DNA of 62,910 bases, the filler included, from Bonamia ostreae (taxonomy: Eukaryota), in NCBI GenBank assembly GCA_040357525.1. It is 38 parts of 38 records of this genome, joined end to end, with 100 filler letters (N's around TTAATTAATTAA, not from the genome) between each part and the next. Parts side by side here need not be neighbours in the genome. Positions count along the whole stretch, not along the records: positions 3,345 to 4,914 come from JBDODL010001611.1; 37 more parts are not named here. One strand, given 5' to 3'. Made by a program: the position numbers and the translations under genes. Within the stretch, counting starts at the first letter, position 1. Each line of letters begins with the position of its first letter. Shown one piece after another: positions 1,673-59,507 of this stretch. The notes below the pieces were generated by a model. The model ran no database searches, was not told where the DNA came from, and saw nothing but the letters and a program-made list of their open reading frames with translations.

Positions 1673-3344
1673 GCTATGGGAATTGCTGGTGGTGTAATCG
1701 TGCCGTTTATCCTGCTGGGCGTTGTTGGGGTTCTTCTGTTCAAGAGAAGCCGTCACAAACAAGGTTTACATAGAATCATGGTTTTGTAATTATTACTATC
1801 ATTTTATGTACATCTCATTTTAGATCATATAATCTGAATAGAGCTTGGTAAGTAATTTGCTAACAAACATTTATAAGTTACAATTTATGGACCTTGAAAT
1901 TAATTTTGTATTTATCATTACTTACATCCCTTCTCTATAATGCAATCATTTGATCTGAACAGGGATTGGTATATTGTAAGTACTTAATTTGCTAATAATC
2001 ATCTTCTGGTTTTTATATACCCATCTTTAGACAGGGCGTATTATGGTACACTTTACATCAGATTGCAGTTTTTTCTCTTCTATCTAAAAATTAGTCCCCT
2101 GATGAAATCCAAGACCCCTACCTAACTCATCTTAAAATAATGTCCGAAGATTGATTTTACCTATCCTTATATTTTACCTATTCAACATCTGATGTAAAAG
2201 TTGTTTTTCTTTATTAATGTATCAACGCTACTAATATACGAAACTGGTAGGGTTCTTTTTTGTTTTATTCTTTATTTATTTTTTAAATACATGACCCTTG
2301 TCCTCGTTCTTGTAAATGTAAAGAATGTACAACATGTAATCCTGTTACAAATTTTGTCCATAAAGTCACTGTAGACGAAACATTTAGGAAGTTAGAATAT
2401 TTTTGACATGTCTCGTTACTTTTTTAATTTTCATACAATTCTATTTTACTTTATTTCTAACAGATACCAGAAAGAGAGAAACATCAGTTGAGAGGGGTGA
2501 ATGTGAAGTCCTAGTACGTAAGGAAACAAAATATCTGGAGGAAAATGAGCAGAATGACAAACAGCAAAGAGGTGATACATTTGTGTGCGTTTTATATTTG
2601 ACGTTTACTTTCTACTGATTAGGATCTGCTTTTGTTTTCTAATTTGATTATATTCTCCTGATTAGAGCTGGAGCTGTCTGAAGGAAAATTTCCCAAAGTT
2701 CTACATTAGGCAGCTATTGAAACAGTACACCCAGAGAGACAAAGGCAATAGCTTGAAATTACCTGCCAATAAACTAGAAAAAACAAAAAACAAACAAAGC
2801 AAAATTCAATACCTATCAACAGTAACTGTTATAAGTGACCACATAATTAACAAACGTTTGTCAGCGTTGCACTCACTTATTCAAAATAAGCCTTAGACAA
2901 TGATATTCGAATTTAATAGACAATAGATACAAACTATCAACTTATAACAATTACTAGTACTGCTAAACCCCCCACAATTAAGTATGATTAATTGAAGTGA
3001 TTATAGATCAAAGAGCATCCGTAGAAGATAACGAATAATATCCTCTTCTGTCCAGGAATAAAGGTGACAACAAAAATTGTTGTCTGTCGTTGTTAACTTC
3101 AGAATTGCGATAATATTCTAGAACCACTAGGCCATTTCAAGATCAATTTTGCCTCGAAATACATATGGGTCATTTTGATTTTATAAATGAAGTGCTATAC
3201 CTATTTCTAGATAAAGGCAACTGATGATTAGCAATGACGTATGANNNNNNNNNNNNNNNNNNNNNNNNNNNNNNNNNNNNNNNNNNNNTTAATTAATTAA
3301 NNNNNNNNNNNNNNNNNNNNNNNNNNNNNNNNNNNNNNNNNNNN

Positions 3345-4538
3345 GTTGTCGTAGCCACGTTATAAAACGAATACGCGGCTTTAAGCTCTTTATGCTTCGA
3401 GTGATTTAACACCGTCGAAGATAAAATGTAGAAGCTCGCGATATCCGTCACATTCCCAAAACCGTCCTAAATTTTACCAGTCAAAAAATTTGCACAAAGC
3501 TAAAATCGCAAAACTTTTTTGACATAAGTCGAGACAACATTCTCTCTCGGAACAAAAAAGTGCGAAAACTCTTTTTCCGAAAAATAGAATCGCATTTTAA
3601 ATTTTTGCAGATAATCGTTCAGCAATTTCATTGCGCTTTCGGAATCTTCTTCTTTTAGCGGTTCCAACGAAATCGACGTTTTCGCCGGTAATCGGTGGAG
3701 CTTTTCAAACAACTCCATTTTCAATTTTGGGTTTTTGTACGCAAATTGTATTTCAACCAATTTTCGCGGATTTAGTTGTCGGTGGTAATAACTATTTTTT
3801 GCAAATTTTGGAAAACAGGTTTTTGCAAAATGGCTTCGTGACTTCGATTCCGGCGGTGTAAATTGCTTGCCAGATTCCCTTGAGATGGACCCGTCTTGTT
3901 ATCTCTTTTATGAGGACCGGAGCCAATCTTTTCGAACGCAATTTTTTGTGCACGCACAAAAAGTTTATTTCGACCATTTTCAGTTTTCTGGATTGAACGG
4001 AAAAACTTTTTCTCTGCGAAAGCGGTGACCGGTATTCCGGTGATTGAAGCCACCATTTCGCCAGACGGACTCGTTCTGACGCAGACGTGCAAGTCCTTTT
4101 CGAAGCCAGGCGGAGATAACGCCCATTTCAAAAAGTCCTTTTCGTATCGGAACCTAAACGAGTGATCTTCGTCTTCGATGTAGTTCTGTTGGAGCAGTTC
4201 GAAGAACTCGTTTATCTTTGCGATTTTGACCGAAAACCTCTTCTTCGTTCGAGATGTCGAACGTGTCCCAGTAATATTTGTTCGGGAGCTTGAACGGCTT
4301 CAGCGGAATGCTCTGAGAGTCGTTTTTGGCGTCGATCGGTCCGTTTTTGATTTTGGTTTCCTCTAAAATCAAAATCGCAACTTGATTTCGTTACCGGTTG
4401 CGTGTCCCAAAATCGGTGCTGCGGCGATTCCGCCTTTTTGGGAGAACCGCTGCGATTGGACAAATCCAAGTGCTTTATGTCGTCCGCTACTTTTTTCGTG
4501 TCGTTATTAGAGCTAACTGTTTTCGGAGAATTGCTCAT
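3345..4538 (-). CDS. NMT: Glycylpeptide N-myristoyltransferase (3' partial), 5 introns
   Basis: Motifs [68 protein letters not shown] and LKAAYSFYN join in frame after removing introns 4363-4381 (19 nt), 4216-4237 (22), 3988-4006 (19), 3792-3816 (25) and 3467-3514 (48), all GTT..AG. Confidence 0.97.
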
Positions 4539-4572
4539 TTATTATATTAACGTTTCGCAATATCTTTACTTA
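4539..4572. promoter_or_regulatory. 34-bp intergenic region between the divergent NMT and RPN11 start codons (putative bidirectional promoter/UTRs)
   Basis: NMT ATG at 4538 (minus) and RPN11 ATG at 4573 (plus). Confidence 0.7.
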
Positions 4573-4914
4573 ATGGACCTCAAAAACATACAGTCTCTTT
4601 TTCAAAACCAGGTTTGATCCTTTAACGCGTAAAGAGAGAAAACAAAGACAGCGTTCTGCCGGACTCAGTTTTCGACTAATTTTAATTACGAAAAACAATT
4701 TACAAAAAAGTCAGAAACGATTTATATCTCTCCGTTGGCGCTGATCAAAATGCTGAAACACAGCAGAGCGGGAATACCGATGGAAGTGATGGGGTTGATG
4801 CTGGGGGAGTTCGTGGATGACTACACTGTTGTCGTGCAAGATGTGTTCGCGATGCCTCAGAGCGGCACTAGTTTAAAATTTTAACTGAAAGCTGTCAGCG
4901 TCGAGTCCGTCGAC
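4573..4914 (+). CDS. RPN11: 26S proteasome lid deubiquitinase RPN11/PSMD14 (5' part; missed by the ORF track)
   Basis: Removing introns 4612-4634 (23 nt), 4668-4710 (43) and 4871-4891 (21) gives [85 protein letters not shown]. Confidence 0.96.
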
Positions 4915-5546
4915 NNNNNNNNNNNNNNNNNNNNNNNNNNNNNNNNNNNNNNNNNNNNTTAATTAATTAANNNNNNNNNNNNNNNNNNNNNNNNNNNNNN
5001 NNNNNNNNNNNNNNACAATGCCCCCCCCCAAACGTTCTTTTCATAAAACAATGGAAAAAACCCAGATAGGCAAACAAAGAAAAGAAATAGCATTAAATGT
5101 CCTCGATAGATAATGCAGGTAAGTCACAAAACCCATCTATTTTTAGTTGCACTACAGTTAGATTTTCTCTCTCGAATTCTTGCGAGTTCTGGTCCAAGAC
5201 CAGTCCGAGGTAGTGTCGTTGACGTAGTTAGATAGTTAGACCCAATGACCTTCGCTAAGTTACGATAACATTCGACAATTCCAATACGTTTGAATTTTCT
5301 CCTTTACACCAGTTAATATTTTCGTGAATAGCAAAGAACATTCTCACACATTTACATTGTCACCAAATTTTGTTCCAATTTTCAAGGACTTCCTGAACTA
5401 ATCGAAAATCAATTCAGAATTTGACTGATTCACTTTACTAGATATTAACCTGGGCCCACTGAGTTCTTTATCTCACGTTAACATAGACAGTATTTGCAAC
5501 ACACCTATATTGCTTGCAAGATTTTTTCCGATAAGGTTTCAAAATA

Positions 5547-5658
5547 TGAATGATAAAACCAAATGTTATACACACGATACGTGTTTATTACCAATACTAC
5601 ACACTTCTACTAAGTAATGAACACGTATCGTGTGCATAACATCTGGTTTTATCATTCA
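5547..5658. repeat. Near-perfect inverted repeat: 45-bp arms, 22-bp spacer (MITE or foldback remnant)
   Basis: Arm 5547-5591 is the reverse complement of arm 5614-5658 with 3 mismatches. Confidence 0.85.
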
Positions 5659-6840
5659 CAGTCATTTAACCTTTGTCCCGTACCGATGACCTAACAATTT
5701 CTAAAGATTGACTGTCAGCATGATTTTATTCATCCATTCTAAAGGATTGATTAAATCACTATATTGTTTATAATAACATATATACTTGAAATCACCTTAA
5801 GCATTCTGAGTTGTATCATCTGCATATATACATGTTAGCAGGTGATTGTTACATGTATTTGTTGGCGACCTGTACTTCAAGTTAAATGATGTTACATGCT
5901 GTTTCTGTATGTTAACACTAAAACGTGATATTTTCATTTCAATAATTTGTATGTATATGAATTAATTACTCCGTTGTTTCTCAGAAAAGGGAAACTTTTT
6001 CAAAGAAGAATCCGGGAAAGGGGACGGAATTCAAGGATCACCATAATGTGGATTTCCCCCATATCCAGCTAAAACTCATAGACTGGATAACGTATCATTA
6101 GTGCTGGGGGAGATTTGGGACCATCTCAGTGGTGCCGTTTGATCCTTGTTGTGCCAACGACTAGTTTTGGGTTTACTTCTAGGGCAGTTTCACCATGGAA
6201 AGATGATCGAATCAGGACTCCGGGGGGAACAGAAATTTTTCATAGTATGTAGCATTCTAGCATTCATTCTTGACAAGTGGGTACCCAGAGGTTTGTTACC
6301 ACCATAGTTATGTTGAGTTCTGTCAATAAATTGATTTAAGTTCAATTTATTTTCATTTTGCCTGTATTAGTTATGAAATGCATATTGTCATTCGATTGAA
6401 GTTATAAAATATCGTCAAAGAAATTTAAAAGTATTGAATACGATAACATTTACAATTAAAAGTTACCTAAATTATGTAAAGATGGTAAAGGTAGAAAAGA
6501 TGACATTTTTGTTATTATGTCGCATAATCTATGTCGCTATGCTGATAAGCATTAGATAGATGAATTTAGGAATATCTAATATNNNNNNNNNNNNNNNNNN
6601 NNNNNNNNNNNNNNNNNNNNNNNNNNTTAATTAATTAANNNNNNNNNNNNNNNNNNNNNNNNNNNNNNNNNNNNNNNNNNNNTCAACAGAGGATTATCAA
6701 GTAGGTGGTATTTATTCATTTATAAAATAATTCATGTACTTACTCTTTTTAGAAGTGTCATGATTCAATGCAATATAGAATACAAATCAAATTTTCAATT
6801 GTTTTTCGCTGTGTTTGTATTGTTGCTCATTTGTTTATAG

Positions 6841-8372: not shown

Positions 8373-9823
8373 TTAACTTCGATCCACTTTTCCTGCTCTA
8401 ATAACCTCGTCAACGACCATTAAATTCTCTGCCATTACAGCTCCCAATTGAAGAAACTGTCTTTTCGCTCTGTAATTGTCCCAAACTCCCTCGTCTTCAG
8501 GCGACATCGGCTCTCCGTCTTCCAAATTCAATCCTACCGCAGATTCTAATTTTAATTGATAGAACTAGTTTTATTCGACGCCTCTTCCAGTTTTCTGACG
8601 CTTTCAATCATGTTCAATCCCGAATTCTGAGCCAAAACTTTTGGAATGGCCATTAAAGCTTCCGCAAACGCTTTTACGCCGTTTGCTGACTTTCCATATT
8701 TTTCGTTTTTGATTTCTGTTTCCAAATGTTTGGCACAAGCTAGTTCGAACGAACCAGCGCCGGGCACAACTTTTCTGTCTAAATTTTTTTATTTGTCAAA
8801 AATTTTAATTTAAAAGCAATTTTCGCTTTAAATTTTATTATTTTTGGTCAAAAATTTTAAATTGAAAAGCAATTTTTGTTCTAAATTTTATTATTTTTGG
8901 TCAAAAATTTTAATTAAAAAGCAATTTTCGCTTTAAATTTTATTATTTTTGGTCAAAAATTTTAAATTGAAAAGCAATTTTTGTTCTAAATTTTATTATT
9001 TTTTGTCAAAAATTTTAAATTGGAAAAGCAATTTTCGCTTTAAATTTTATTATTTTTTTTGTCAAAAATTTTCATTAAAAAGCCATTTTTGTTCTGAATT
9101 ATTATTTTTTGTCAAAATTTCGCTTAAAAATTTAGTCATTTAAACCATCAACCGCAAACTTGACCGCTCTCAATCCATCTCTTAAAGCTTCTTTCGCTTG
9201 CACCAAAATGTGTTTACTGTTCCCGCGTAGCAAAACAGTAACTGAACGAGGTTCTTTTGCGCCCTCGACAAAAGTAAATCTCTCTTCGCCCAAAATCTTT
9301 TCAGTGACTGAGCCAGCGAAGCCAAGACAATCTTCCGACAGATTTTCGGTGCTGTTCATCGCTTTTCCTCCAAATGCCAACGCTTTTTAAGTAAATATTT
9401 TTTGGCTAATTTTTAAAATCGCCATTTTTTCAAATTTCGATTTGGCTAAATTTTTAGTTTTTGAAAGAAAAACAGAGTCGTTCCATATTTCTTCTTTTCG
9501 CTCTTCGAAGAGCTACGATTCCATTTTTGTTCAAACGGTCTAATGAAAGCGGATCAATTCCTTTTTGGTTAATCACGACAAACGACGCTGTTTTGTCTTT
9601 CGAACACACTTTTTGCTAAATTTTTGCAAATTGTTGGAGTTGGAAACTTTTAAAGCGACGATGGTGTCGATGCGAGAATTGACTTTGTTGCGTTCTGCGG
9701 AAACCATTTCGGCGCGTTGATCTGCGTTGTTGAAATAGAATTGCGAATTCACCTCAGTTTTTTCGTATTCCAACGACACATTCAAAATCAACAAATAGCA
9801 ATTTTTGGATATTTTTGCCATTT
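8373..9823 (-). CDS. CCT6: T-complex protein 1 subunit zeta (5' partial)
   Basis: [57 protein letters not shown] and VDEVIRAG, with stop TAA at 8373-8375. Introns 9616-9647 (32 nt), 9383-9473 (91), 8779-9145 (367) and 8546-8565 (20), all GTT..AG. Confidence 0.97.
8790..9130. repeat. Intronic minisatellite, about 53-55 nt unit, about 6 copies
   Basis: Repeated gtcaaaaattttaaattgaaaagcaatttt(cgct/tgttc)taaattttattatttttt inside the 367-nt CCT6 intron. Confidence 0.9.
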
Positions 9824-12051
9824 CTAGTTTTTTTTTCAGATTTTGACAATCAAAAAAAAACAAAAATTGTCTTTTACAAAAAAAATCGAATGAACAAAAA
9901 AATTTGTCTTTTACANNNNNNNNNNNNNNNNNNNNNNNNNNNNNNNNNNNNNNNNNNNNTTAATTAATTAANNNNNNNNNNNNNNNNNNNNNNNNNNNNN
10001 NNNNNNNNNNNNNNNAAATATCTCCAAAAATTGACGATTTCACGATTAATAAATTTACAACATTTTTGTAAACATTTTGAATTGTCTATTCACGAATTTA
10101 TAAAATTCGTCTTTTACAAAAGAAAAATTTAGATTTAAAAATTGATGCCTCGCCATTTTTTAATTTTGAATAAAAATTAATCAAAAACGCCAAATTACAG
10201 TGTATGAAACAAATATAATAAAAAAAGCTTTTAGAAAAGACCAACAAGAAAATAGATCAACAAATAAATTCCCACCAAATAATAAAGCAGCGAAGCTAGA
10301 AGAACGATCCACGAAAGTACAAAAATCGACGAAGACAAAAACCTCCCACAAAAATCGCTAGGGCCCTCGTTTAAAAATATTTCGTAAAAGTTTGGTTCGA
10401 TAAAAACGTTTTCTAATTTATTCTCGTTTAAAACTGATTTTTTGTTTTGCATTTTCAGAATTGTAAAAGCTTATTTTGTTTAAAAAATGTCGATCTTAAA
10501 AATAAAAAATTTATGGCGCAACAAAAAATAGAAAAAATTACAAATTTATTAAAAAATCTAAAGCTTTTTCGATTTTGGCATTTTTAGAACGGTAAAAATT
10601 CCTGAAATCGGAAATTAAGCTTATAAAATCCTTTAAGTAAAATTTTTGTTCGTCTTTTTTTAAAAATCTGTAAGGAGACAGATGATTTTCGATAAAGTTC
10701 CCCAAAATAGCAAACTGAACTTTTTCATAATTTTTGCAGTTTTATAAAATTCAATTTTAAACAATTTTCATCAAAATTTGGTGCAAATATTTGAAATCTG
10801 CAAAATTTGAATTGTAATCGAACTCCATTCGGAAAAACAAAAAAATTGCGCCGACTGAAATTCTCCAATAAGAACTTTTATCATTTAATATTTTATTTTT
10901 CCGCTCTTCAAAATTGACATTTTTCCCTTTTTTCAACTTTGGTCCTAATGATCCACACGAATACAACTTTTTAGTGACATGTTTAAAAAGCTAAAACACA
11001 AAAATATTTTTAACCGTTTGGTCAAAATGTTCAGAATCGGAGGACATTTGGTCATCATCGGAAATTTTAATAACAAATTTCAAGTACTCTTTCAATGTGT
11101 TGATGCATTTAAGTCTACAAGTTCTTTCGTGTACTTTTACTAATTTTGATATTGTGGTCGCAGCATTTTCTTGTAAAGACGGAATTTCTGTAATAGAAAT
11201 TTTATAAAATTCAAATTTTATAATTTTAAAAAACCGTCAATTAAATTAATGAAGAGAAAAAATGACAAATCCTCGGCGATTTTGTTCGAGATATTTTCTT
11301 TTTTAAAATCCAACATATTTTCGAAGGCTAAATTTTAACAAAATTCTTTAAAACCAACGCAAGCTGCACTTCTTACAGTCCAATTGTCGTCTTTTATCAA
11401 AACAAAAAGAATCGAAATCAATTTTGAAAATTGTTTTTCAAGATCATTTTTTTCTATTTTTCTTAACAATTCAGTGATTGAAAAGCACGAAGCCTTTTTT
11501 AATATGTTTAATGCCCATATTCTGTCAATTTAAACAAAAAAAAGACGATATTTTTAATTAAATAAAACGAAAATATTTTTNNNNNNNNNNNNNNNNNNNN
11601 NNNNNNNNNNNNNNNNNNNNNNNNTTAATTAATTAANNNNNNNNNNNNNNNNNNNNNNNNNNNNNNNNNNNNNNNNNNNNTCTTTGTTTTTTCGTGTTTT
11701 TGACTTTTATTTGGTTTTTTGTTGAATTTATTTGTAAAATTTTATCGATTTTTCTATTTATTGTCAATTTTTCTATTTATTGTCAAATTTTCTATTTTTC
11801 CACCAAATTAATATTTACGATTGAAGATTTTGAGATGAAAGACGAAAAATTTATAAATCCCTGCAAAATAAAGCAAATTCCTTTTATGCGAAAGTACAAA
11901 CGCGGGAGAGCCTACAAAATTGCTCTGAAGAGAATAAGCGAACTTGAAGATCATTCTCAATATCAATAAAATGTTTTTAATTGCAAATTTGTTGAACTTG
12001 ATCTCGTCCATTAATTAAAATTTGAAATCAAATTGGAAAAATGACAAAAAT

Positions 12052-12722: not shown

Positions 12723-15700
12723 TTTAATTTTCAAATATCATTTTGCAAAAACCAAAGTTTAATTTTAAAAAACAATTTCATTTGAGGTCTTTTACTCTTT
12801 CTTAACATCCGTTTCTATTATTTACAAAACTTGTTAAAAAAACATTATAATCATTTGGCAAAAGATAACAAATATTTATTTTAAGTCCTTTCCGAACTTT
12901 TTTTAAATGAAAGTAATTTATCGTAAATTTTATCTTATCTTCAAATTTCGCGCTGAAAAATTTTTTATCGAAATTTTGATTATCGAAATTTAGTTTTTTC
13001 GTGGAAAATTTTTCATTCGCAAAATTTTTAATTTTGTTTTCTGAAAAGTAATGTTGATTTGTCGAGAGGAACATGTTGTATATCGATAGCCGCATTTTGT
13101 ACTTTCTTAAATTTTTTGATCGTAAAAAATCGAAAAATCAAAATTTTTTTAGACAAAAAAAAACTTCGTTTTATATTTCGAAAAAGTTTTAAAGCTTTGA
13201 TACGGTTGACATTTGTTACATTTGAAATGATAAAATCTATCTCCTNNNNNNNNNNNNNNNNNNNNNNNNNNNNNNNNNNNNNNNNNNNNTTAATTAATTA
13301 ANNNNNNNNNNNNNNNNNNNNNNNNNNNNNNNNNNNNNNNNNNNNGGACAAAATGAAGAGAGCAGATTTTGTGAAACACTTCTTAATCAATGAGAATGAT
13401 GATTACTAGGATGTTCTAGTCCCACGTGATAGAAGCAAGAGGACATTAGAATGGGAATTTATTTTTGTGTTATGGGTGTTCTTGGGCCCTTTTTTATCAA
13501 AGGAACTGTGAGAAATGTGTAGATTATTTTCTATTAAACAAGGCTGAAAATCTGCGTTGATTTAAGTTACATTCTTTATCATTTTACTTTGCTGTGGATG
13601 AAGGTCTTGCTGCATGTATCGAATATAAACTCTGGTTGAAGATCACCAGAGTTGCTCGGTGGATATTGGTGTGTATGTGCAAGGAACAGTACCCAATTAA
13701 ACTTTTTTGAGCTTTTTTGACAAATAGAACAAAGCCATATTATTTTAACCAGTCAGTTCAACACAATATATGTAATGCTAAAAATGATTGCAAATTTGTG
13801 TAACAACTTCCTACTGCACAATATGCTAAACTCACTGTACAGACAGAAAATATAATTTGTTCTGGAAAACATCGGTTTTGCCATTGTAATCCACTACTAT
13901 TAGAATTCGGTTGTTTCAAATATCATTCTGATCTCTCCAGAGAGTGACCGCCGGACAATAGACTCCAGATTTGTCAGACCAAAATATATGCATTGACCGA
14001 TTGTCTTAATTTCATTGGTTAATGCATGATATGTGATGTTTAACTACACTCCTACAGTACATACAATGTTTTTCAACATTCGATGTACTTTGACTATGTA
14101 CATAACTGGCGACTCCAACAGTAACAAGTTTATTGTCTCGCTTTAATAGAAAATGATAGTTAAGTACAACAAAGTTGCAATCTGGCTCTGTAGACAATCA
14201 ACTGTTTTGTTCCTTACTGCTAACTTAGCATCGCTATGCCTTGTGTAGCTATTCCAGTTCTCTCACCATTGAATATCAGTGGCAGATTTGAAGGAGGGGG
14301 TTTACAAGATCTGCAAACACCTCTTTTGTTTGAACAGTTTAACAGAAATTGTCATTTCGGGGTCTGTAAGTTACCTTTTTTGGATAAAAAGGACAAAGTA
14401 GGGTCATACCACCCTCTTTAAACATTTCCTGGATCCACTCCAAGGATATATACCGTGTTCCTTTGATATATTGCCAACTTTTATTCAAGGTCAATTTTGG
14501 CAATATAGAAAGAGTGGCAATATTACTGAGAATTTTGTGAGTAGTCAAAAGAAATTCATTTTAATGATTTACTTGGGCTACATTCTGTATAAAGGTTTGC
14601 TAGATAATCTTCCGTTTTATATAGCAATTACGTGTATTTGTAATTAACCTGACCAGTTGGATACTTTGTCTAGCCCGTCTCACATCACGACAACACTCTC
14701 GAAGTACAGGTGTGATTGCCGATGACAGACAGTTGTTGGAACAATTTTCAGATAGTAATTAGAAAATTCACAATTTATTTCCAGATGTTATGCTACTTTT
14801 AATGGTAATTATATATGGCCCCTTTTTGGTAGCATTAAGGGGTACAAAGTTTGCATACATAATCTAGGTGCTGTAATTACTAGAAATACTCTCTGCATTT
14901 GTTTCATGTNNNNNNNNNNNNNNNNNNNNNNNNNNNNNNNNNNNNNNNNNNNNTTAATTAATTAANNNNNNNNNNNNNNNNNNNNNNNNNNNNNNNNNNN
15001 NNNNNNNNNTTTACTCTGATGTCGAATAATAAAGTAATATCCATGTGAGCTCTTAATGATTATGAAATTGATGTTAATTTATCTTACATTGGACTTTTCC
15101 TGTACATGGCAAATCTTATCAATTAAATGAAGTGTATTATCTGTAAAACTATAATATAATGATAATAAAGATAATCAATATTCTTTGACGAGAACAGAGT
15201 GGTAAATGTTTTTTGCTTTCACTTCTAGTTTCTTTGTCGTTGTTTCGGTCATTTTTGGTTTTGATGTGTTCTTTCTCTGTATCAATTAAATACAGTTGCA
15301 TTTAACATGTGCATTGAATCCTACTTTATTTAAAAGGTGAAGATAGCGAACAGAGAGGTAATTGTCCTAACATATTCAATGTACTCTGTTTATGTATATT
15401 GAAATAGAATGCCTAATTTCCATCACTAATGAATGACTATCTTTCGAAACATTTGATATGGGGATCAAGGGGTATTTCCACAACAAACTGAATAGTCTCC
15501 ATCATTCGCAACTATATAATCAAAACAATTTCTAATATCCTTTGATAACAAATACTTGATTTTATCTGGATTTGAGGTATGCAATGAAAACACTATCACT
15601 GGGTATGGTAAAAGTAATGCCTCCGTGTGTGAAATATTGTAACAATTGACTAGGACTTAAAACTGGTGACATTAATACTTTTGAGAGCAAGAAATTTATT

Positions 15701-39899: not shown

Positions 39900-41118
39900 A
39901 TTTAACAAATTTAACAAAATTTAAAAACTCTGCGTACCCATTTTCGCAAATTTGACATTTTAACAACTTGTCTTTTCTCTTAAAAACCGTTAAAGGATAA
40001 CAATAGTAATTTTGGATGTCATCTTTAGAGACCATTCTATTTTATAAAATTTTAGCGAAACCTCATTTCTTTAACGACAACAAAATGTTTGCAGTAACCT
40101 TTGTGACAATAATAATAGATCGAATCGATTCTGAGATCGACTTCTTTAATTCGTTTGTCCATTCTTTTCGGAAGCGCGTTGAAAGTAAAGTTTGTTGAGA
40201 CATTTTCGTTGTTTTTCGCCCAATTTCTTATTTCAGCAGAATAAGAGCCGTTTCCATGTTCATAAAAATCTCCTTCGATGAAGAAGTATCCGTTATTTTT
40301 GGTTTCGATGTCTTTTAGAATGTGTTTGTTTTTGTCCAAAAGTTTGTTTTTGATATTGAAGCCATTTATGGATTGCGAGTAGTTCGGGCAGTCGATTGAG
40401 TTTCGTAACGAAGATAATGTGTTGTCTCCCAACATTAGAATTTCCTTTATTAATATTTTATCGAACCAGAAAAGGCGCGTTTTCACCAAAATTTGTAATT
40501 TCTATTCGAAACAATAAGGAATTTGAAGCGATTTGTTTGTATCCTTTGGTGAAGACAGTCTTTTTTAAGAAAGATTCTAGAATTTGGTTAGTAATGGAAT
40601 TGTTTTTGCTTTCTTTGAGATTCTTGTTGCAAGTTTTGTAATTTTGCCGTTTTCTTCAAAATTTTATAAAATCATTTTTACAAATTAAAACATTTTTTCA
40701 ATGGCGTCTTTAAATTTTTTTATGTCTGGAATATTTATCGAATGCGCTTTTGCATACGCCGTTTCCTTGCTTTCTTTGGTCAACCAGTGGTTCCAACCGG
40801 AAATAAAATTTGCATTAGCTCCAATAAAACTTTCTATCTCTTCTTCAAACGACTTTATTTTCAGGTCTTCGATGGAAAAATCGTCTTTATTTTTTTGCAA
40901 AAACCATTTTTTGAATATTTCGAGTATTTTTTCTCCAGTTTTGAGAGATTTGACAATAATTTTGAATACTTTTTAACAAATAAATCGCTTTTGACTATGT
41001 TGTGGTCGCCTGTGCGCAAATATTCAAGGTCGGAATTTGAGATCGTTTTGTTTTTAGATGTTTTGTAGTTGTATTTGCGTTTTAAATTGAGACTTTCGAG
41101 TGCGTTTTTTCTGTGCAT
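39900..41118 (-). CDS. SNAPC3: snRNA-activating protein complex subunit 3 (SNAP50), 3' partial
   Basis: LGDNTLSSLRNSIDC, GYFFIEGDFY, DLRIDSIYYYCHKGYCKH and YPL...CQIC. One continuous frame from ATG 41118 after removing introns of 20 nt (40885-40904), 38, 22 (40445-40466) and 25 (40037-40061). Confidence 0.85.
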
Positions 41119-47720: not shown

Positions 47721-49819
47721 TCAGAGATTGAAGGTATCTACCGGAACCAAAATATCTTGTCCCAATGCCAAGTTTTAGGCCCCAGAATGGGATAATCTAG
47801 TGGGAAAACATTGAATGTTTATGAATGCTTTCCTTTATTCCCATAAAAGATAATGTAGAGAATAAGTTCATTGCTATAGCCCATGCAACGAATATAGATG
47901 TTACAGAAAAATCACCATTGTTTGTCTTCGCCAATTCCCCCACTTTGCATTTAAGCAACAACGATTTGGTAAAACAGCATTGAAAACTGAAGTTAAAGAC
48001 AAGATACTGTGTGACCATTCATCATTTATTATTATTCATGTACACTTACGCCAAAGAATTTATTCANNNNNNNNNNNNNNNNNNNNNNNNNNNNNNNNNN
48101 NNNNNNNNNNTTAATTAATTAANNNNNNNNNNNNNNNNNNNNNNNNNNNNNNNNNNNNNNNNNNNNATATATACTAAATTTTCATTGAAAATATTTGATA
48201 ATCAAAATAGGACATTGTTTTTATTTACTGACGACCTTGACAATTTTGTTATCAGGTCGGGCCATTACGCACTCAAAAATAAATGTGAGAGTCCTTGCCT
48301 TTACTGAAATTATGCCTCATCATTATATTGAGATGTATAATAAAAGAACTTGTATATTTTATCAATACAACCTACAATTCAGTTCTTGAAATGCACTCAT
48401 TTTGAAACAATATTAAGGTTTACTTCCTTGCAAAATTATCGCACACATTAAAGGTTCCAAAGAGATGGACAAGTCAATTTATATAACCCCCACCCACATT
48501 ATTTTTAACTACTAGGTTTAAAACAAATATTTGCTTCTGCATAGTAGCTGAGACAGTTTATTACACACCTTGCACTCCTCTCTGCTTGTTGCTCATTCAC
48601 CAACCCACTTGAAGTTTCTGTCTCATCTGATGTTTGTTGATCAACTGGAGTGCTGCAAATGAATCTAGTTTTTAAATTCAGTTGATCTGTTTGATTAAAT
48701 TTACATAAAAACTAGGTATAATTGAGATGCTTCTCAATTAATTAAAAGATCCTACCTTTAGAAGGATAAAAATTCTAGGATTAATAAAAATATTATCTCA
48801 GTGTGATTTGGCTAAGATTACTTTTGAAATGATTCTTATTGGATTTAAAAAATAAATAAATATATTTCTCACCAGAAAGAAATAGGCTAAAGATGTTAAA
48901 CAGCAATACATAATTACGACACTAGCAAAATAGGAAATAAAATACTTACATGTCTGAATTGTCAATGTGACTCTCAGCTCTGTTTGAAATATCTCAACAC
49001 ATACATCTTCCTCTTCAGGATCTGGTAGGTCATCACTCATTTTCTGAATAAACAAAGTTCCATTTAATGTACATATATGTACACATATCTAAGTCTACTA
49101 TCTTTCTAATTAGAATGCATGTACATTTTAGTTCCCATTGGAACATATTTACGATTGGTATTTTCATTCTCTTAAGTTTCTATGCTTCACTTTTAAGATA
49201 TTGTTTAAAGCATACCCGACATTCTTTGCCGTGGTCTCTTAAATTTTCAAGATTGATTAGTGAACCACAATTGTGACACTCCTCATAGTCCGACGATACT
49301 AGGGTTTTCTTTGTTTCATCAATGGGTAGTGAACGCTGTATTGGCCGTATATAAATACGACCAGAAGACATTTGTATCAGTTCGTCCACTGCACATGCCC
49401 CAACACTGGCAACATTCAGAAAAACTCTAGAATTTTCCATCGTGCGCATTATTTCGAACCCAACCCCCCCCCCCCCCACCTTTTTCCAGCCTAGGAAATT
49501 CCCTGAAGCACATATAAAGCTGAGTGAACAATACTATACATTAATAATATCATACATACATGTATACTGTATCACACAATTTCAGGAGCATCAAAAACAT
49601 TTCAAGATTAAGAATAAGGTAGCAATATTGGAAAAGGGAAGGGTGTGTGTGTTCCACTTCCCAATGATGAAAAAAGGAGCAAATTTAAAATGCCACTTTT
49701 GTATCTAAATGCAAGGTGNNNNNNNNNNNNNNNNNNNNNNNNNNNNNNNNNNNNNNNNNNNNTTAATTAATTAANNNNNNNNNNNNNNNNNNNNNNNNNN
49801 NNNNNNNNNNNNNNNNNNG

Positions 49820-51369
49820 ATATTATATAAACTGATATATGATGATCAATCGATTCCTCTTACCAAAATCGAGTCAAGAACACAGGTAGCAAAACTGTCG
49901 GCAATACACGATATACTAGAGAAACAATTGGGAGTATCGGAACGAGCAAACACAGGGCTCTCAACAGCATCTTCGGTAGATAACGTGTCAAGATCGCAAC
50001 ATGCCACAGAATTAAAACTGGTATCAGACCTGGTAGATACTATAGTAACAGAAGGAGTCTTACAAGCACATTCGTCAAACCGTATTATAAAGGATCTGAC
50101 CGTAAACGTTGTTGCGGCAATAGGTGATATACAACTGAAACCAGAAAATTACACATTAAACCCATCGACAAATTTGTTAGAGGAAATATCGATACCTCAA
50201 CCAATGTCCACATCAAGACCTATATCAACAGATGCATCGAGGCGAGCATCGAGGCGAGCATTGGAGCGAGCATCGGAGCGAGCATCGGAATCGTCATTAA
50301 GAGACCATTTAGCATCTGTATCAAAATATCTAGCAGAAACTGCAGAAACTGCAGAAACACCTACAATGGGGACATCGTTAGGATCGTCATCAAATGGCCC
50401 TTCGAGAATGCCAACAAACAAATCAACAAGACCCGCATCGATACAGACATTGGATCGATCATTAAAATCATCATCAGCAAATATGCCATCACCAACATTA
50501 CCAAGCTATCCATTCCTATCTACACGATCGCATACATCGTCATCATATGGAGAACCTCCATTAAATTTTTCAATTAAAAATACACAAATACCGACAAATA
50601 GACCATCAACATTGTTATCAAATGGTTCTTCGACAAATCTATCAAACTATCCAACAATGTCCGCATCGATACCTACATTAAGGCAATTAGCAAATGGTTC
50701 ATCAGCAATATCACCGCTATCGCCACTACCTCGCACAGGGGGATTTGGATCGATACCATTTGCATCAGAACGTTCAGCAAATATTTCACCACCACCTGTT
50801 GCACCAAAACGTTCATCAGCAATATCACCGCGATCACAATCACCTCGCACATCAGGGGGAATTGGATCGAAACCATTTGCATCAGAACATTCACCAAAAT
50901 TTTCACCACCACCTGTTATACCAGGACGTTCATCACCATTATTACCACGATCGCCACTACCTCGCACATTAGGGGGATTTGGATCGATGGGATCTACAGC
51001 AGAACGTTCACCAAATATTTCATCGCCAACACGTACACCAACAATTACATCAGGTAATCGATCACGGAGCTCATGTACCAACAGCAATGCAACAGACGGA
51101 AACGGTACGTTTGGTAATCCGAGTCGTATGGTACACGAAGTAGCGGAGAGCGAGTTTGAGACAGAGGAACTTGATGTGAATATACAGGATGCGTCGATGC
51201 GTGAATCGAATAATCGTGGAAGTGCGAATAATACAACCAAATCCTCCCTGGATATGGCGAATAATATGAGGAATGATGAGGAGATGATGAGAGAAGTGAA
51301 TGATATTGAACCGCCGCATGAATCAAGTGTAGATAGTTCTTTAAATACACACAGTAATATTGTTAACTC
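49820..51369 (+). CDS. Intronless S/T/P-rich low-complexity protein fragment, open across the whole contig
   Basis: The frame is open from the contig start (ILYKLIYDDQSIP...) to the end, with a strong bias to A-ending codons (TCA, CCA, ACA, GCA). Confidence 0.75.
50697..51027 (+). repeat. Coding tandem repeat, about 3 units of 114-117 nt (SSAISP..P.PRT.GG.GS.PFASE.S...SPPPV)
   Basis: Units start at 50697, 50811 and 50928, and their lengths are multiples of 3. Confidence 0.9.
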
Positions 51370-56418: not shown

Positions 56419-57834
56419 TGTCTCTCCGACGAGGTGCCGTCTTGAGAGATTCTAGTAAAGACCTGACCTGACAAATAATTGACAATCGCCAATTATTGCC
56501 ATAAAAAGTTGTAAACTTTGAAAATTAGCCGAACCTTGCGATTCCCAGTTGTCTCGAGAATTTTTCTGCTGCTTCTTTTCCTTTTAAGTCGTTGTCTGTC
56601 CACAGATATATTTTTTCGAATTGGTCCAATAATGGCAGCAGATCAACCGGAAGAGCATTGCATCCGACCGGAAGAGAGATCGCCGTCATTTTTGTTGCCT
56701 AAATATCAACAAACATTACCTGGTAGACGGCCATCGCATCATATTCGCCTTCGGTAATAACAATCGATTTGTCTTTTTCTTTAATTGTATTTAATCCAAA
56801 AAATCCCCACGATCCCCCACTCGGATATATTGTCTGATCGGATTTTTCTTCAAGTCCTCTTAACTTTTCGATTTTAGCAAAATTTTGATGTCTCAAAAAA
56901 TCATGAAAAAATTGTAAAATTGAAAAAAATGAGGAAAAAAATTGTGAAAAGAACTAAAATTTTAAAATTGCAAAAAATGAGGAAAAAAATTGTGAAAAGA
57001 ACTAAAATTTTAAAATTGCAAAAAAATTGAAAAAATGCGAAAAGAACTAAATTGCAAAATTTGAGAATCGGAAAAACTTTGATTCTCTGTAAAACTTTAG
57101 TCGAGTAATTTGTGTTCGTTACGTACCAAGGGAAAACGATGGCAGGTTTTCTCTTAAAACCGTCATCCGTGTAAAAAGACCAATGTATGACCCCGGAATT
57201 AAACTTCTTTAGAGTTTCTTTAGTGATTCCTCTTTTCTCGAGAATTTGTTCGAAAAAGTTCTTGTTCTTCTCACTCAAACGGGCTTTTTCCAAAATTTGC
57301 AGCATTTTCGGTCGCAATTCTTCGGATTTGCTCTTCATCGCAAATTTCTTCTTTTTCTCGTCCTAAATGCAAATCGGTATGGATTAAAAACTTCGAGCAA
57401 ATTTCTGGTTATTTTTGTGTACGTCGGTTCGCGATCCATCATCGCCCTGAATTTCATGTATCCGCCTTTGTTGTTGCACCGGTGGCAATAGAACCCCCCG
57501 CTTGACTTCCATATAATCAATTTGTACAAATTGGAATTCTTGTCGTTGTGGGGAGGGCAGGTCGGGCAGTATTTGAGCTTGTAGAACAATGGCGTTTCCT
57601 TAACATTTGAACAAAAACTCTGAAATCCTTCTTTTTTTGAAGACACAGATCCACTATCGTTTTCGAGAAATCCTCGAATTGCTCTTCATCGTTTAAATCA
57701 GCTTTTATTTCATCCTCTAAAAAAATCTGCTCAGTGAAATATCTAATTTTTAAAGCTTTTAATTTAGTTTTGCGAGATTTTCTGTAAATTCTTGCACTTC
57801 TTATGCTACACAATGTTTTAATTCCGCGTAGCAT
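56419..57834 (-). CDS. TWNK: Twinkle-type mitochondrial primase-helicase, N-terminal primase part
   Basis: Arg-rich presequence MLRGIKTLCSIRSARIYRK, zinc-binding CPTC...FYCHRC, KRGIT, and TOPRIM IVITEGEYDAMAV...IYLWTDND. Introns of 20, 29, about 214 (with repeats) and 21 nt (56699-56719). Confidence 0.88.
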
Positions 57835-58466: not shown

Positions 58467-59507
58467 TTAACAGCGATTGAACAGATTCTGCGTTTTCGTC
58501 GGAAGGTTTTGGCGAATTAGAGAAATCGCTTTCTTCGTACGAAAAAATATAATCCGTTGAAGACGCTTTGTTGCAATAAAAATTGATAGAAAGAAACAGT
58601 ACTCGTTTTTGTCGTCAAAATCGTTTTCAATCAATTTTTCTTTTTTAATTCTGCTCTTTTCGCGCAGAATCCTTTTTCTTTTTCTGTGGCTGTTCGTTGT
58701 TATTTTAAAAACGGGAGCGATTTGATATCTTTTGCGCGGTTGTCTCTGGCCAATTTTGCCCATTTCTTTTGTTTATTTATTGCTTTTCGGTTGTGCTCCA
58801 AAATCGAGTCGAATTTTTGGATTTTCGAGAATCCCAAAATTCCGTAATTTTTCGCTCTTTTTTCTGTTTTTCTTCTTTTTTCTGCTTTTTGCAAATTAAA
58901 AACTGTTTGATTTTACATTAGAACTCGCTTCGTCTTCGTTTGAAGAACATGAAGAACCGCTGCAATCTGATTTTTCGTCAATAAAATTGTGCATTTTGAC
59001 GTTACGAGCCGCTAAAACATGTCTGATTTTCTCCATCAATTTTCCGTCTTTTTTTCCAGATTCGATGTGCAGCAACAATGATCGATATCTCTCAAAGTTT
59101 AGAAGGCACTAATTTGATCAATTTGTTCAATTTAACATTAATTTCCTTTTCGATTTTGCTTTTCTTAATAAAATCTGTTTTTGTGCGCGGAACAAAATCC
59201 AAAAGAGCTCGACAATCATATTTGTCGATTTTCAATCCGTTCCATTCAACAAAATCTTCTTTCTTTTCTTGTTTTCGAAACTTTGGAGGATTTTGTTCGA
59301 TGCTACAAGATTGACCATTTAATCTCAATATTTGCAGAGGATCTCCGAGCTTTTTTTATTTTTGTTAAATGTTTATGAACGCTTTTAATATCGATTTCTC
59401 TTTGTTTTTCTGAAAGTTTATGGCAAATTTTGCTTTTTCGTCTCAGTTCTTTTTCGTCTTAATGTTTTAAATAGAAAACGATTTTTGCATGAATTGTAAT
59501 ACGACAT
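58467..59507 (-). CDS. CLASRP: DRY_EERY-domain splicing regulator, CLASRP/SFRS16-like
   Basis: MSYYNSCKNHEKELRR, GDPLQILRLNGQSC, IDKYDCRALLDFVP and NFERYRSL assemble after removing 22, 31, 28, 19 and 23 nt GTT..AG introns. The 3' end is approximate. Confidence 0.78.

Follow-up and report, generated by a model that had tools for sequence, protein, structure and literature searches.

How are introns recognised when most of them are 19–25 nucleotides (nt) long and begin with GTT rather than with the canonical extended donor GTRAGT? This question is raised by a 62,910-base window (the whole stretch of DNA analysed here), which carries the public label Bonamia ostreae and consists of 39 contigs of ~1.55 kb with N runs and TTAATTAATTAA spacers between them, and in particular by contig 3345-4914 with its NMT and RPN11 genes. 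The initial annotation had reconstructed about 40 such introns by frame restoration and had proposed that the organism either has altered U1/U6 sequences or defines its introns mainly by length. We found that eight segments of contig 3345-4914 are absent from a run of guessed RNA kind and are kept by DNA runs, and that these segments and 16 introns of three further genes all begin with GTT. We tentatively suggest that this donor could be read by a small nuclear RNA (snRNA) that has changed to match it.

Eight short segments are absent from run X3 and present in DNA runs

The interval 3345-4914 is exactly one contig (1570 bp, 42% G+C, CpG observed/expected 1.63), with NMT on the minus strand and RPN11 on the plus strand. 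Read evidence covers this contig, and the 16 introns on other contigs rest on gene models. Run X3, whose kind is given as 'RNA?' (a guessed label), contains 69% of the sampled words of the contig, and a single X3 contig of 3295 nt spans it with 0 base differences at a word depth of 2399. This X3 contig is without eight segments of 19–48 nt each. Run X11 aligned nowhere on the contig. In the X3 contig, six segments are missing at alignment positions 3792 (25 nt), 3988 (19 nt), 4216 (22 nt), 4363 (19 nt), 4610 (23 nt) and 4871 (21 nt), and the other two appear as joints at 3465->3514 (48 nt, CT..AC) and 4667->4711 (43 nt, GT..AG). DNA run X1, which may be the source of the assembly, covers the contig gap-free with all segments present. 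In DNA run X4, the 48-nt segment is intact and two X4 pieces reach 10–12 nt into two other segments. Thus, all eight segments are absent from X3 and present in X1, and in X4 where X4 covers them.

After a shift within the alignment ambiguity, 8/8 segments run from GT to AG on the strand of the gene in which they lie, five on the minus strand (NMT) and three on the plus strand (RPN11). Once they are removed, NMT reads as an open frame of 353 codons that runs off the contig start, and RPN11, starting from the ATG at 4573, has an open frame of 255 nt. Because the RPN11 open frame starts at this ATG, the two segments that resemble introns of a 5' untranslated region lie in coding sequence. From exon to exon (four open frames), the coordinates of the Pfam profiles NMT and NMT_C are contiguous, and for the window genes tested Pfam coordinates are contiguous across removed introns. 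The eight read-backed introns include all three example strings given in the initial annotation; GTT is found in 8/8 and GTTT in 7/8. It is highly probable that these segments are true spliceosomal introns of the GT-AG class, from a eukaryote whose genome is gene-dense and CpG-rich, and that they have a GUUU(U) donor and an AAG or TAG acceptor after an A-rich stretch; the claim that very short GT-AG introns are real here therefore holds: X3 lacks eight segments that the DNA runs keep, and the frames are restored. The features of this contig are as follows.

3345..4538, minus: NMT gene, partial; 6 exons, ATG at 4538, runs off the contig start; Pfam NMT and NMT_C
4363..4381, minus: NMT intron 1; 19 nt, GTTGCG...TTTAG; lacking in X3, kept in X1
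4216..4237, minus: NMT intron 2; 22 nt, GTTTTC...CAAAG; lacking in X3
3988..4006, minus: NMT intron 3; 19 nt, GTTTTT...TCCAG; lacking in X3
3792..3816, minus: NMT intron 4; 25 nt, GTTTTC...AATAG; contains the 12-mer AATTTGCAAAAA; lacking in X3
3467..3514, minus: NMT intron 5; 48 nt, GTTTTG...TTTAG; X3 joint 3465->3514; whole in X1 and X4
4573..4914, plus: RPN11 (JAB/MPN) gene, partial; ATG at 4573; Pfam JAB
4612..4634, plus: RPN11 intron 1; 23 nt, GTTTGA...TAAAG; lacking in X3
4668..4710, plus: RPN11 intron 2; 43 nt, GTTTTC...AAAAG; X3 joint 4667->4711
4871..4891, plus: RPN11 intron 3; 21 nt, GTTTAA...GAAAG, with an in-frame TAA; lacking in X3

The two genes are divergent, with the ATGs of NMT (4538, minus) and RPN11 (4573, plus) 34 nt apart, and one X3 contig passes through both with the introns of both removed. 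The transcripts of the pair probably overlap. A Bonamia transcriptome paper was puzzled by 'polycistronic' transcripts, and neither 'intron' nor 'splic' occurs in its available text (PMC9329632); overlapping transcripts like those of NMT and RPN11 may fit this description.

Three further genes contribute 16 introns

We aligned public gene models and homologues to three further contigs with our own protein-to-DNA spliced aligner, which accepts any GT..AG. The CCT6, SNAPC3 and CLASRP-like contigs add 16 introns (4 + 5 + 7), all of which begin with GTT (16/16). The CCT6 intron set was also recovered with a collinear homologue from Octopus (P0002). As a control of the aligner, we used the metagenome locus L001 (2802 bp), where an unrelated eukaryote has an apparently complete CCT6 gene whose protein is 58% identical to the window protein; here the donors came out as GTGAGT and GTAGGT, with introns of 145–257 nt. 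A search for relatives in metagenomes gave two loci, L001 and a weak 35% match.

8376..9824, minus: CCT6 (TCP-1 zeta) gene, partial; Pfam Cpn60_TCP1 on 5 frames; public model P0001 end-to-end
9616..9647, minus: CCT6 intron; 32 nt, GTTTCC...TTTAG; contains AATTTGCAAAAA; P0001 and Octopus P0002
9383..9473, minus: CCT6 intron; 91 nt, GTTTTT...AAAAG; spliced alignment
8779..9145, minus: CCT6 intron; 367 nt, GTTTAA...TTTAG; spliced alignment
8546..8565, minus: CCT6 intron; 20 nt, GTTCTA...ATTAG; spliced alignment
39931..41064, minus: SNAPC3 gene, partial; Pfam SNAPC3; public models P0048 and P0148 (MHBO_003220)
40885..40904, minus: SNAPC3 intron; 20 nt, GTTTTT...TAAAG; gene model and composition-blind predictor
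40654..40691, minus: SNAPC3 intron; 38 nt, GTTTTA...TGAAG; gene models and composition-blind predictor
40445..40466, minus: SNAPC3 intron; 22 nt, GTTCGA...TAAAG; gene models and composition-blind predictor
40037..40061, minus: SNAPC3 intron; 25 nt, GTTTCG...AATAG; gene models and unrelated homologue P0051; Pfam profile runs from 122 to 121 across it
39967..39987, minus: SNAPC3 segment; 21 nt, GTTTTT...ACAAG, stop-free; out in P0048, read through in frame in P0148
58069..59507, minus: CLASRP-like (DRY_EERY) gene, partial; Pfam DRY_EERY; public model P0149, MHBO_003227
59458..59479, minus: CLASRP-like intron; 22 nt, GTTTTC...TTAAG; model P0149
59350..59380, minus: CLASRP-like intron; 31 nt, GTTCAT...AAAAG; model P0149
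59109..59136, minus: CLASRP-like intron; 28 nt, GTTAAA...ATTAG; model P0149
58882..58903, minus: CLASRP-like intron; 22 nt, GTTTTT...AGCAG; contains AATTTGCAAAAA; model P0149
58690..58712, minus: CLASRP-like intron; 23 nt, GTTTTT...AACAG; model P0149
58566..58597, minus: CLASRP-like intron; 32 nt, GTTTCT...CAAAG; model P0149
58277..58384, minus: CLASRP-like intron; 108 nt, GTTTCT...TAAAG; model P0149

Intron density is high, with 24 introns in 4436 nt of coding sequence (5.4 per kb) and 3–7 introns per gene, all genes being partial. Alternative splicing that keeps the frame is possible for the SNAPC3 segment at 39967-39987. In the 367-nt CCT6 intron, a 53-nt unit is repeated in tandem ~6.6 times (8771-9117), so long introns here can arise by expansion of short ones.

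All 24 introns have T at the third donor position

Read on the gene strand, all 24 introns (24/24) begin with GT and close with AG, the ends of U2-type spliceosomal introns, and the donor reads GTT in 24, GTTT in 19 and GTTTT in 12, giving a consensus of G100 U100 U100 U79 U54. Position +5 is T in 13 introns, C in 5, A in 4 and G in 2; position +6 is T in 9, A in 7, C in 5 and G in 3; and the last exon base is A in 8, G in 8, T in 5 and C in 3. The donor thus departs from the canonical GTRAGT at +3 (T in 24/24), +4 (T in 19/24) and +5 (G in 2/24), as expected from the non-standard, mostly GTTT donor of the initial annotation, and the U12-type donor [AG]TATCCTT occurs in 0/24. Acceptors are AAG in 13 introns, TAG in 8 and CAG in 3. 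The median length is 24 nt, with 14/24 introns at 19–25 nt (the range into which most had been predicted to fall), most at 19–32 nt and a full range of 19–367 nt; this is not the narrow length window (1–4 nt) of the mikrocytid, nucleomorph or heterotrich type.

To judge how unusual this donor is, we compared it with other GT dinucleotides. On both strands of the 21 CpG-rich contigs, GTT makes up 45.6% of 2781 GT and GTTT makes up 21.8%, and in the exons of five genes GTT accounts for 73 of 166 GT. Against the contig background, the eight read-backed introns give P(8/8 GTT) = 0.0019 and P(at least 7/8 GTTT) = 1.5e-4. For all 24 introns, P is ~7e-9 (GTT) and ~4e-9 (GTTT), and both values overstate the case because 16 introns come from predictors trained on the species. 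Because GTT begins 24/24 introns as compared to 44–46% of other GT sites, we infer that U at +3 and +4 is under selection as a signal for recognition and is not a by-product of T-rich introns.

A predictor that uses GT..AG and codon usage alone called 29 introns of at most 60 nt on the CpG-rich contigs, 22 of them GTT; it called 5 (1 GTT) on reversed sequence and 0–4 on three shuffles. At penalty 6, it found 9 of 12 introns that had already been established; for CLASRP, several of its introns lay elsewhere than in the gene model, and its non-GTT calls are untrustworthy in either direction. When coding-potential chaining was run with GTT-only or non-GTT-only donors, 'no introns' scored highest, and the summed score is not a usable measure. 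As compared to the about 40 introns first proposed, 24 are confirmed, and the composition-blind predictor gives its 29 short calls as candidates. The NEMF, Twinkle, DBP2 and sushi genes named at the outset do have their domains by Pfam, and their introns are ab initio calls.

In the Twinkle-like gene (minus strand), two same-phase open frames are parted by one TAG, and the only GT..AG that removes this TAG is an ab initio 21-nt GTAATG...TTTAG (56699-56719). This candidate may have a rare non-GTT, standard-looking donor. The gene has weak matches to the CHC2 primase zinc ribbon and Toprim; when its open frame was compared with longer proteins none scored, and its introns are ab initio.

Short introns have A-rich 3' halves, and three share an element near the acceptor

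We found that the two halves of the short introns differ in composition: 5' halves are 44% T and 3' halves are 44% A. There is no pyrimidine tract before the AG, and the frequent AAG acceptors, A-rich 3' part and missing pyrimidine tract agree with what had been noticed from the sequence at first. Among motifs that could hold a branch-point adenosine, AAAAT occurs in 12/21 short introns as compared to 4.5 in shuffles, and TGCAA occurs in 6/21 as compared to 0.23, in both cases at no fixed position. The 12-mer AATTTGCAAAAA is common to three introns of three genes (3792-3816 in NMT, 9616-9647 in CCT6 and 58882-58903 in the CLASRP-like gene, all minus) and ends 4–5 nt before the AG in each; a 12-mer shared by three introns was seen in 0/500 shuffle sets. 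TTTGCAAA is ~10 times denser in the 24 introns than in the CpG-rich contigs overall, with small counts (4 as compared to 20), and more copies lie in intron-like GTTT...AAAG contexts, for example near 12742 and 39405. The shared element could be a branch or 3' element, or it could be a trace of intron spread.

Exons hold 21 GTTT, 13 of which have [AT]AG 19–50 nt downstream. With such decoys in exons, the donor alone is insufficient and other intronic information must contribute.

A compensating snRNA is the leading candidate for reading the donor

In the spliceosome, two uridine-derived bases at the 5' end of U1 lie opposite donor positions +3 and +4, and at a later stage the ACA of the U6 ACAGAGA box pairs with donor positions +4 to +6. 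Given these contacts, GUUU mismatches standard U1 at two adjacent positions and +4U suits U6. We propose that GUUU(U) may be recognised through base pairing to a spliceosomal snRNA that has altered its pairing segment accordingly; the likeliest candidate is U1, with a 5' end that sets A's against +3 to +5, as in Entamoeba. Pairing of the U6 ACAGAGA box to +4U would help at a later step, and A/T richness, A-runs and the recurrent UUUGCAAAAA element just before the AG may add to intron definition. Two genes give this proposal a splicing context, as the window encodes an SNAPc subunit (SNAPC3) and an SR-type splicing regulator (CLASRP-like).

Entamoeba supplies the precedent: its donors are GUUUGU(U) and its U1 carries AACAAAC, which pairs perfectly to GUUUGUU (bioRxiv 10.1101/2022.06.08.495308). 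It shows in an actual case the kind of snRNA compensation that the initial annotation suggested. These +3U/+4U donors with a compensating U1 were omitted there; they give the idea a precedent, and they mean that the feature occurs in at least one other eukaryote. Because the Entamoeba U1 matches +3U/+4U donors, we rank a compensating U1 first, standard snRNAs next, U1-independent choice third and definition by length last. The whole chain, from spliceosomal introns through a selected GUUU(U) to a compensating snRNA, falls just short of an even chance in our judgement; the step of compensating snRNA or U1 pairing, taken by itself, is tentative and would stand at or slightly under that level.

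Several points weigh against this chain. The RNA nature of X3 is a guess. Sixteen of the 24 introns come from species-trained predictors that possibly favour the common donor, with eight being free of this bias, and the 21-nt GTAATG candidate (56699-56719) suggests that some donors are non-GTT. The species label is a public record, and the single-gene CCT6 tree shows just a very long branch outside animals. The pairing step is purely something that we infer, no snRNA being found in the window: Rfam gave 0 matches at the gathering threshold and, at E<=5, three chance-level matches of which none is an snRNA, and a scan of the window for short U1-5'-end and U6-box motifs returned only antisense splice-donor copies and one chance match. 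The consensus fades after +4 (+5 U in 13/24, +6 mixed), which fits weak or no extended pairing at least equally. Yeasts, Giardia and Trichomonas have atypical donors with standard U1 (bioRxiv 10.1101/2022.06.08.495308), and the related mikrocytids yielded only U2, U4 and U6 (PMC10245619).

Some of these points would suit a spliceosome with standard snRNAs that needs little beyond GU, in which the U-run is bound by protein or aids U6 (+4U with the A of ACAGAGA) and introns are picked by A/T-rich composition and the AG. We regard this as possible but doubtful. The fast decay of the donor consensus after +4 is in keeping with it, as are the 21 exonic GTTT decoys, 13 with a usable [AT]AG, since other information must then be read. 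Lineages with a pyrimidine at +4 usually retain standard U1 (bioRxiv 10.1101/2022.06.08.495308), and myxobolids and Dicyema combine reduced donors with conventional U2 and U2AF (PMC13644364). However, +3 U is invariant (24/24) and mismatches standard U1, the reduced animal donors retain 'GTa' and not GTT (PMC13644364), and the sole lineage that we found described with +3U/+4U has a changed U1 (bioRxiv 10.1101/2022.06.08.495308).

A less probable alternative is that the choice of the 5' splice site is U1-independent: the U1 snRNP (small nuclear ribonucleoprotein) would be lost or unrecognisable, and U6/U5 together with Prp8-type proteins would read GUUU(U) directly. Only 2/24 introns here have G at +5, which in other systems makes the strongest contact with U1, and the mikrocytids, which are also Ascetosporea, yielded 17–19 spliceosomal proteins alongside their three snRNAs (PMC10245619). 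We consider this improbable because an SR-type splicing regulator and SNAPC3 are present, and because ~5.4 introns per kb of coding sequence with lengths of 19–367 nt are unlike the 224 uniform 16–17-nt introns of Mikrocytos. Moreover, splicing-gene loss has been placed in the paramyxid and mikrocytid ancestor, a branch that by name is without haplosporidians, and not in Bonamia (PMC11069148).

Definition of introns mainly by length, with GTT as a passenger of T-rich sequence, was the other option of the initial annotation, and 14/24 introns at 19–25 nt would agree with it; we now hold it to be very unlikely, as the same donor is found from 19 to 367 nt, the intron expanded by 53-nt tandem units is still within the gene model, and GTT occurs in 24/24 introns although T makes up just 44% of the 5' halves of short introns. 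That there are no introns at all, and that the segments are strain indels, assembly artefacts or contigs of another organism such as an animal contaminant, is scarcely credible: the guessed kind of X3, animals as the top named CCT6 matches after self (60–63% identity) and the animal-flavoured domains ASXH, AZUL, Sushi and LIM+SH3 speak for it, but the eight deletions are exact, GT..AG on the gene strand and all frame-restoring with 0 other differences, MHBO tags of the public Bonamia record fall on three contigs, CCT6 forms a long branch outside a 100/100 animal clade, and animals with comparably short introns have GTa donors (PMC13644364). Internal eliminated segments of the ciliate type, with TA boundaries, were rejected, as the segments are present in X1/X4 DNA and their GT..AG ends follow the gene strand.

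A broader version of the compensating-snRNA proposal goes further: a haplosporidian would have re-coded its 5' splice site to GUUU(U) in an intron-dense genome with introns mostly of 19–32 nt, U1 (perhaps also U6/U2) would have co-evolved, and UUUGCAAAAA at 4–5 nt before the AG would be a new branch or 3' signal. We put this forward as a possibility that is unlikely as it stands.

Comparison with other lineages and implications

The window introns resemble those of Entamoeba in having U at +3 (24/24 here) and +4 (19/24 here), and both are A/T-rich parasite genomes. In contrast to the window, Entamoeba is intron-poor and has a strict 7-nt motif with +5 G/+6 U in 88–90% (bioRxiv 10.1101/2022.06.08.495308), whereas the window introns have +5 G in 2/24, a motif that fades after +4 and ~5 introns per kb of coding sequence; the Entamoeba-type G at +5 and U at +6/+7 are not features of the window introns. 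The lineages are unrelated, Entamoeba belonging to Amoebozoa and the window, by its public label, to Rhizaria. In the available text of the Entamoeba preprint we saw no mention of ultra-short lengths (bioRxiv 10.1101/2022.06.08.495308).

The mikrocytids Mikrocytos mackini and Paramikrocytos canceri are Ascetosporea and share extremely short introns and parasitism, with a divergent spliceosome (PMC10245619). However, Mikrocytos has 224 introns in total, all of 16 or 17 nt and highly conserved in sequence, with a reduced spliceosome (PMC10245619), whereas the window has many introns per gene, of 19–367 nt, with only the first 4–5 bases conserved. Myxobolid myxozoans and Dicyema japonicum are parasites with a median intron length of 22–27 nt, no polypyrimidine tract and weak A's before the AG; in contrast, they are animals whose donor is reduced to 'GTa' and not GTT (PMC13644364). 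Dicyemid short introns are also covered in PMC6543705 and PMC6736024. Chlorarachniophyte nucleomorphs (18–21 nt) and heterotrich ciliates (15–16 nt) likewise have ultra-short GT-AG introns, in narrow length windows as compared to the broad spread seen here (PMC10245619).

The combination of ultra-short introns with Entamoeba-like +3U/+4U donors is one that we found undescribed for this lineage and in an intron-dense setting. To our knowledge, U at donor +3 is the rarest choice in eukaryotes. Within the available literature, we found +3 U described in print for Entamoeba alone, where U1 has changed as well. With another, unrelated lineage that is dense in introns, one could test whether drift of the splice site compels the snRNAs to change, and also whether a strong atypical motif can persist without intron loss. 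If the proposal is true, this would be the first intron-rich eukaryote with +3 U, the second independent case of snRNA and splice-site co-evolution, and an intermediate toward the 16–17-nt introns of the mikrocytid relatives. The data also extend the occurrence of very short introns to a second ascetosporean order, in which their architecture is unlike the mikrocytid one.

Standard aligners and gene finders, with their minimum intron lengths and GTRAG models, miss such introns. The Bonamia genome paper gives 2 introns per mRNA and calls the introns 'canonical' (PMC11069148). As tools are blind to short introns and we find 3–7 introns per gene as compared to the 2 per mRNA published, protein sets of this notifiable oyster pathogen likely contain frame errors. 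In the literature on Bonamia and haplosporidians that we searched (supplements, figures and subscription journals lying outside the search), ultra-short or GTT-type introns were not found described. Public gene models already include these introns, and the data are thus openly available, though the pattern was not found described.

Source of the contigs and other contigs of the window

Proteins from three contigs are publicly labelled Bonamia ostreae (MHBO locus tags): a CCT6 exon is 99% identical to the public protein 'MHBO_003201, partial [Bonamia ostreae]', the SNAPC3 contig matches MHBO_003220 and the CLASRP-like contig matches MHBO_003227. The lineage under this label is Haplosporida, Ascetosporea, Rhizaria, and the species name rests mainly on the public label. 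In a single-gene CCT6 tree of 42 rows, the window sequence has a branch of 1.06 as compared to a median of 0.089 and lies outside a 100/100 animal clade. An origin from a dicyemid or another animal, first suggested by animal-looking domains and by Octopus as the best foreign CCT6 match, was dropped in view of the Bonamia label, the CCT6 tree and the GTa donors of Dicyema and myxozoans (PMC13644364). The published Bonamia draft has 12.24 Mb in 9705 scaffolds with an N50 of 1417 bp and 33.3% G+C, and it was annotated by funannotate with earlier-published transcriptome reads (PMC11069148).

We grouped the contigs by CpG observed/expected, with a dividing line set by eye. Of the 39 contigs, 21 are gene-dense (1.02–1.83) and 18 are low in CpG (0.41–0.98; for example 1673-3244, 5015-6582 and 13346-14909). 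A Pfam scan of 290 open frames of at least 45 amino acids on the CpG-rich contigs gave NMT, JAB/RPN11, TCP-1, NFACT_N, SNAPC3, DRY_EERY, DEAD and RPC82, with further matches to Toprim and the CHC2 zinc ribbon, LIM/SH3, ASXH, AZUL and Sushi (weak), in agreement with the genes named in the initial annotation. On the low-CpG contigs, none of the 150 open frames scanned (of 176, with 26 unscanned) had a Pfam match at E<=1e-4, and there was no supported gene or readable donor. The initial annotation had taken host contigs with ordinary GTAAG/GTGAG donors as an internal control; among the open frames scanned, we found no gene that would bear this out. These contigs resemble non-coding DNA of a CpG-depleted genome and are perhaps leftover host sequence in a parasite assembly. 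Contig 49819-51369, in which no frame of at least 45 amino acids has a Pfam match below E = 0.001, is unlike its neighbours: it has 41.7% G+C, an open frame of 516 codons over its full length and frames of 240 codons on the other strand.

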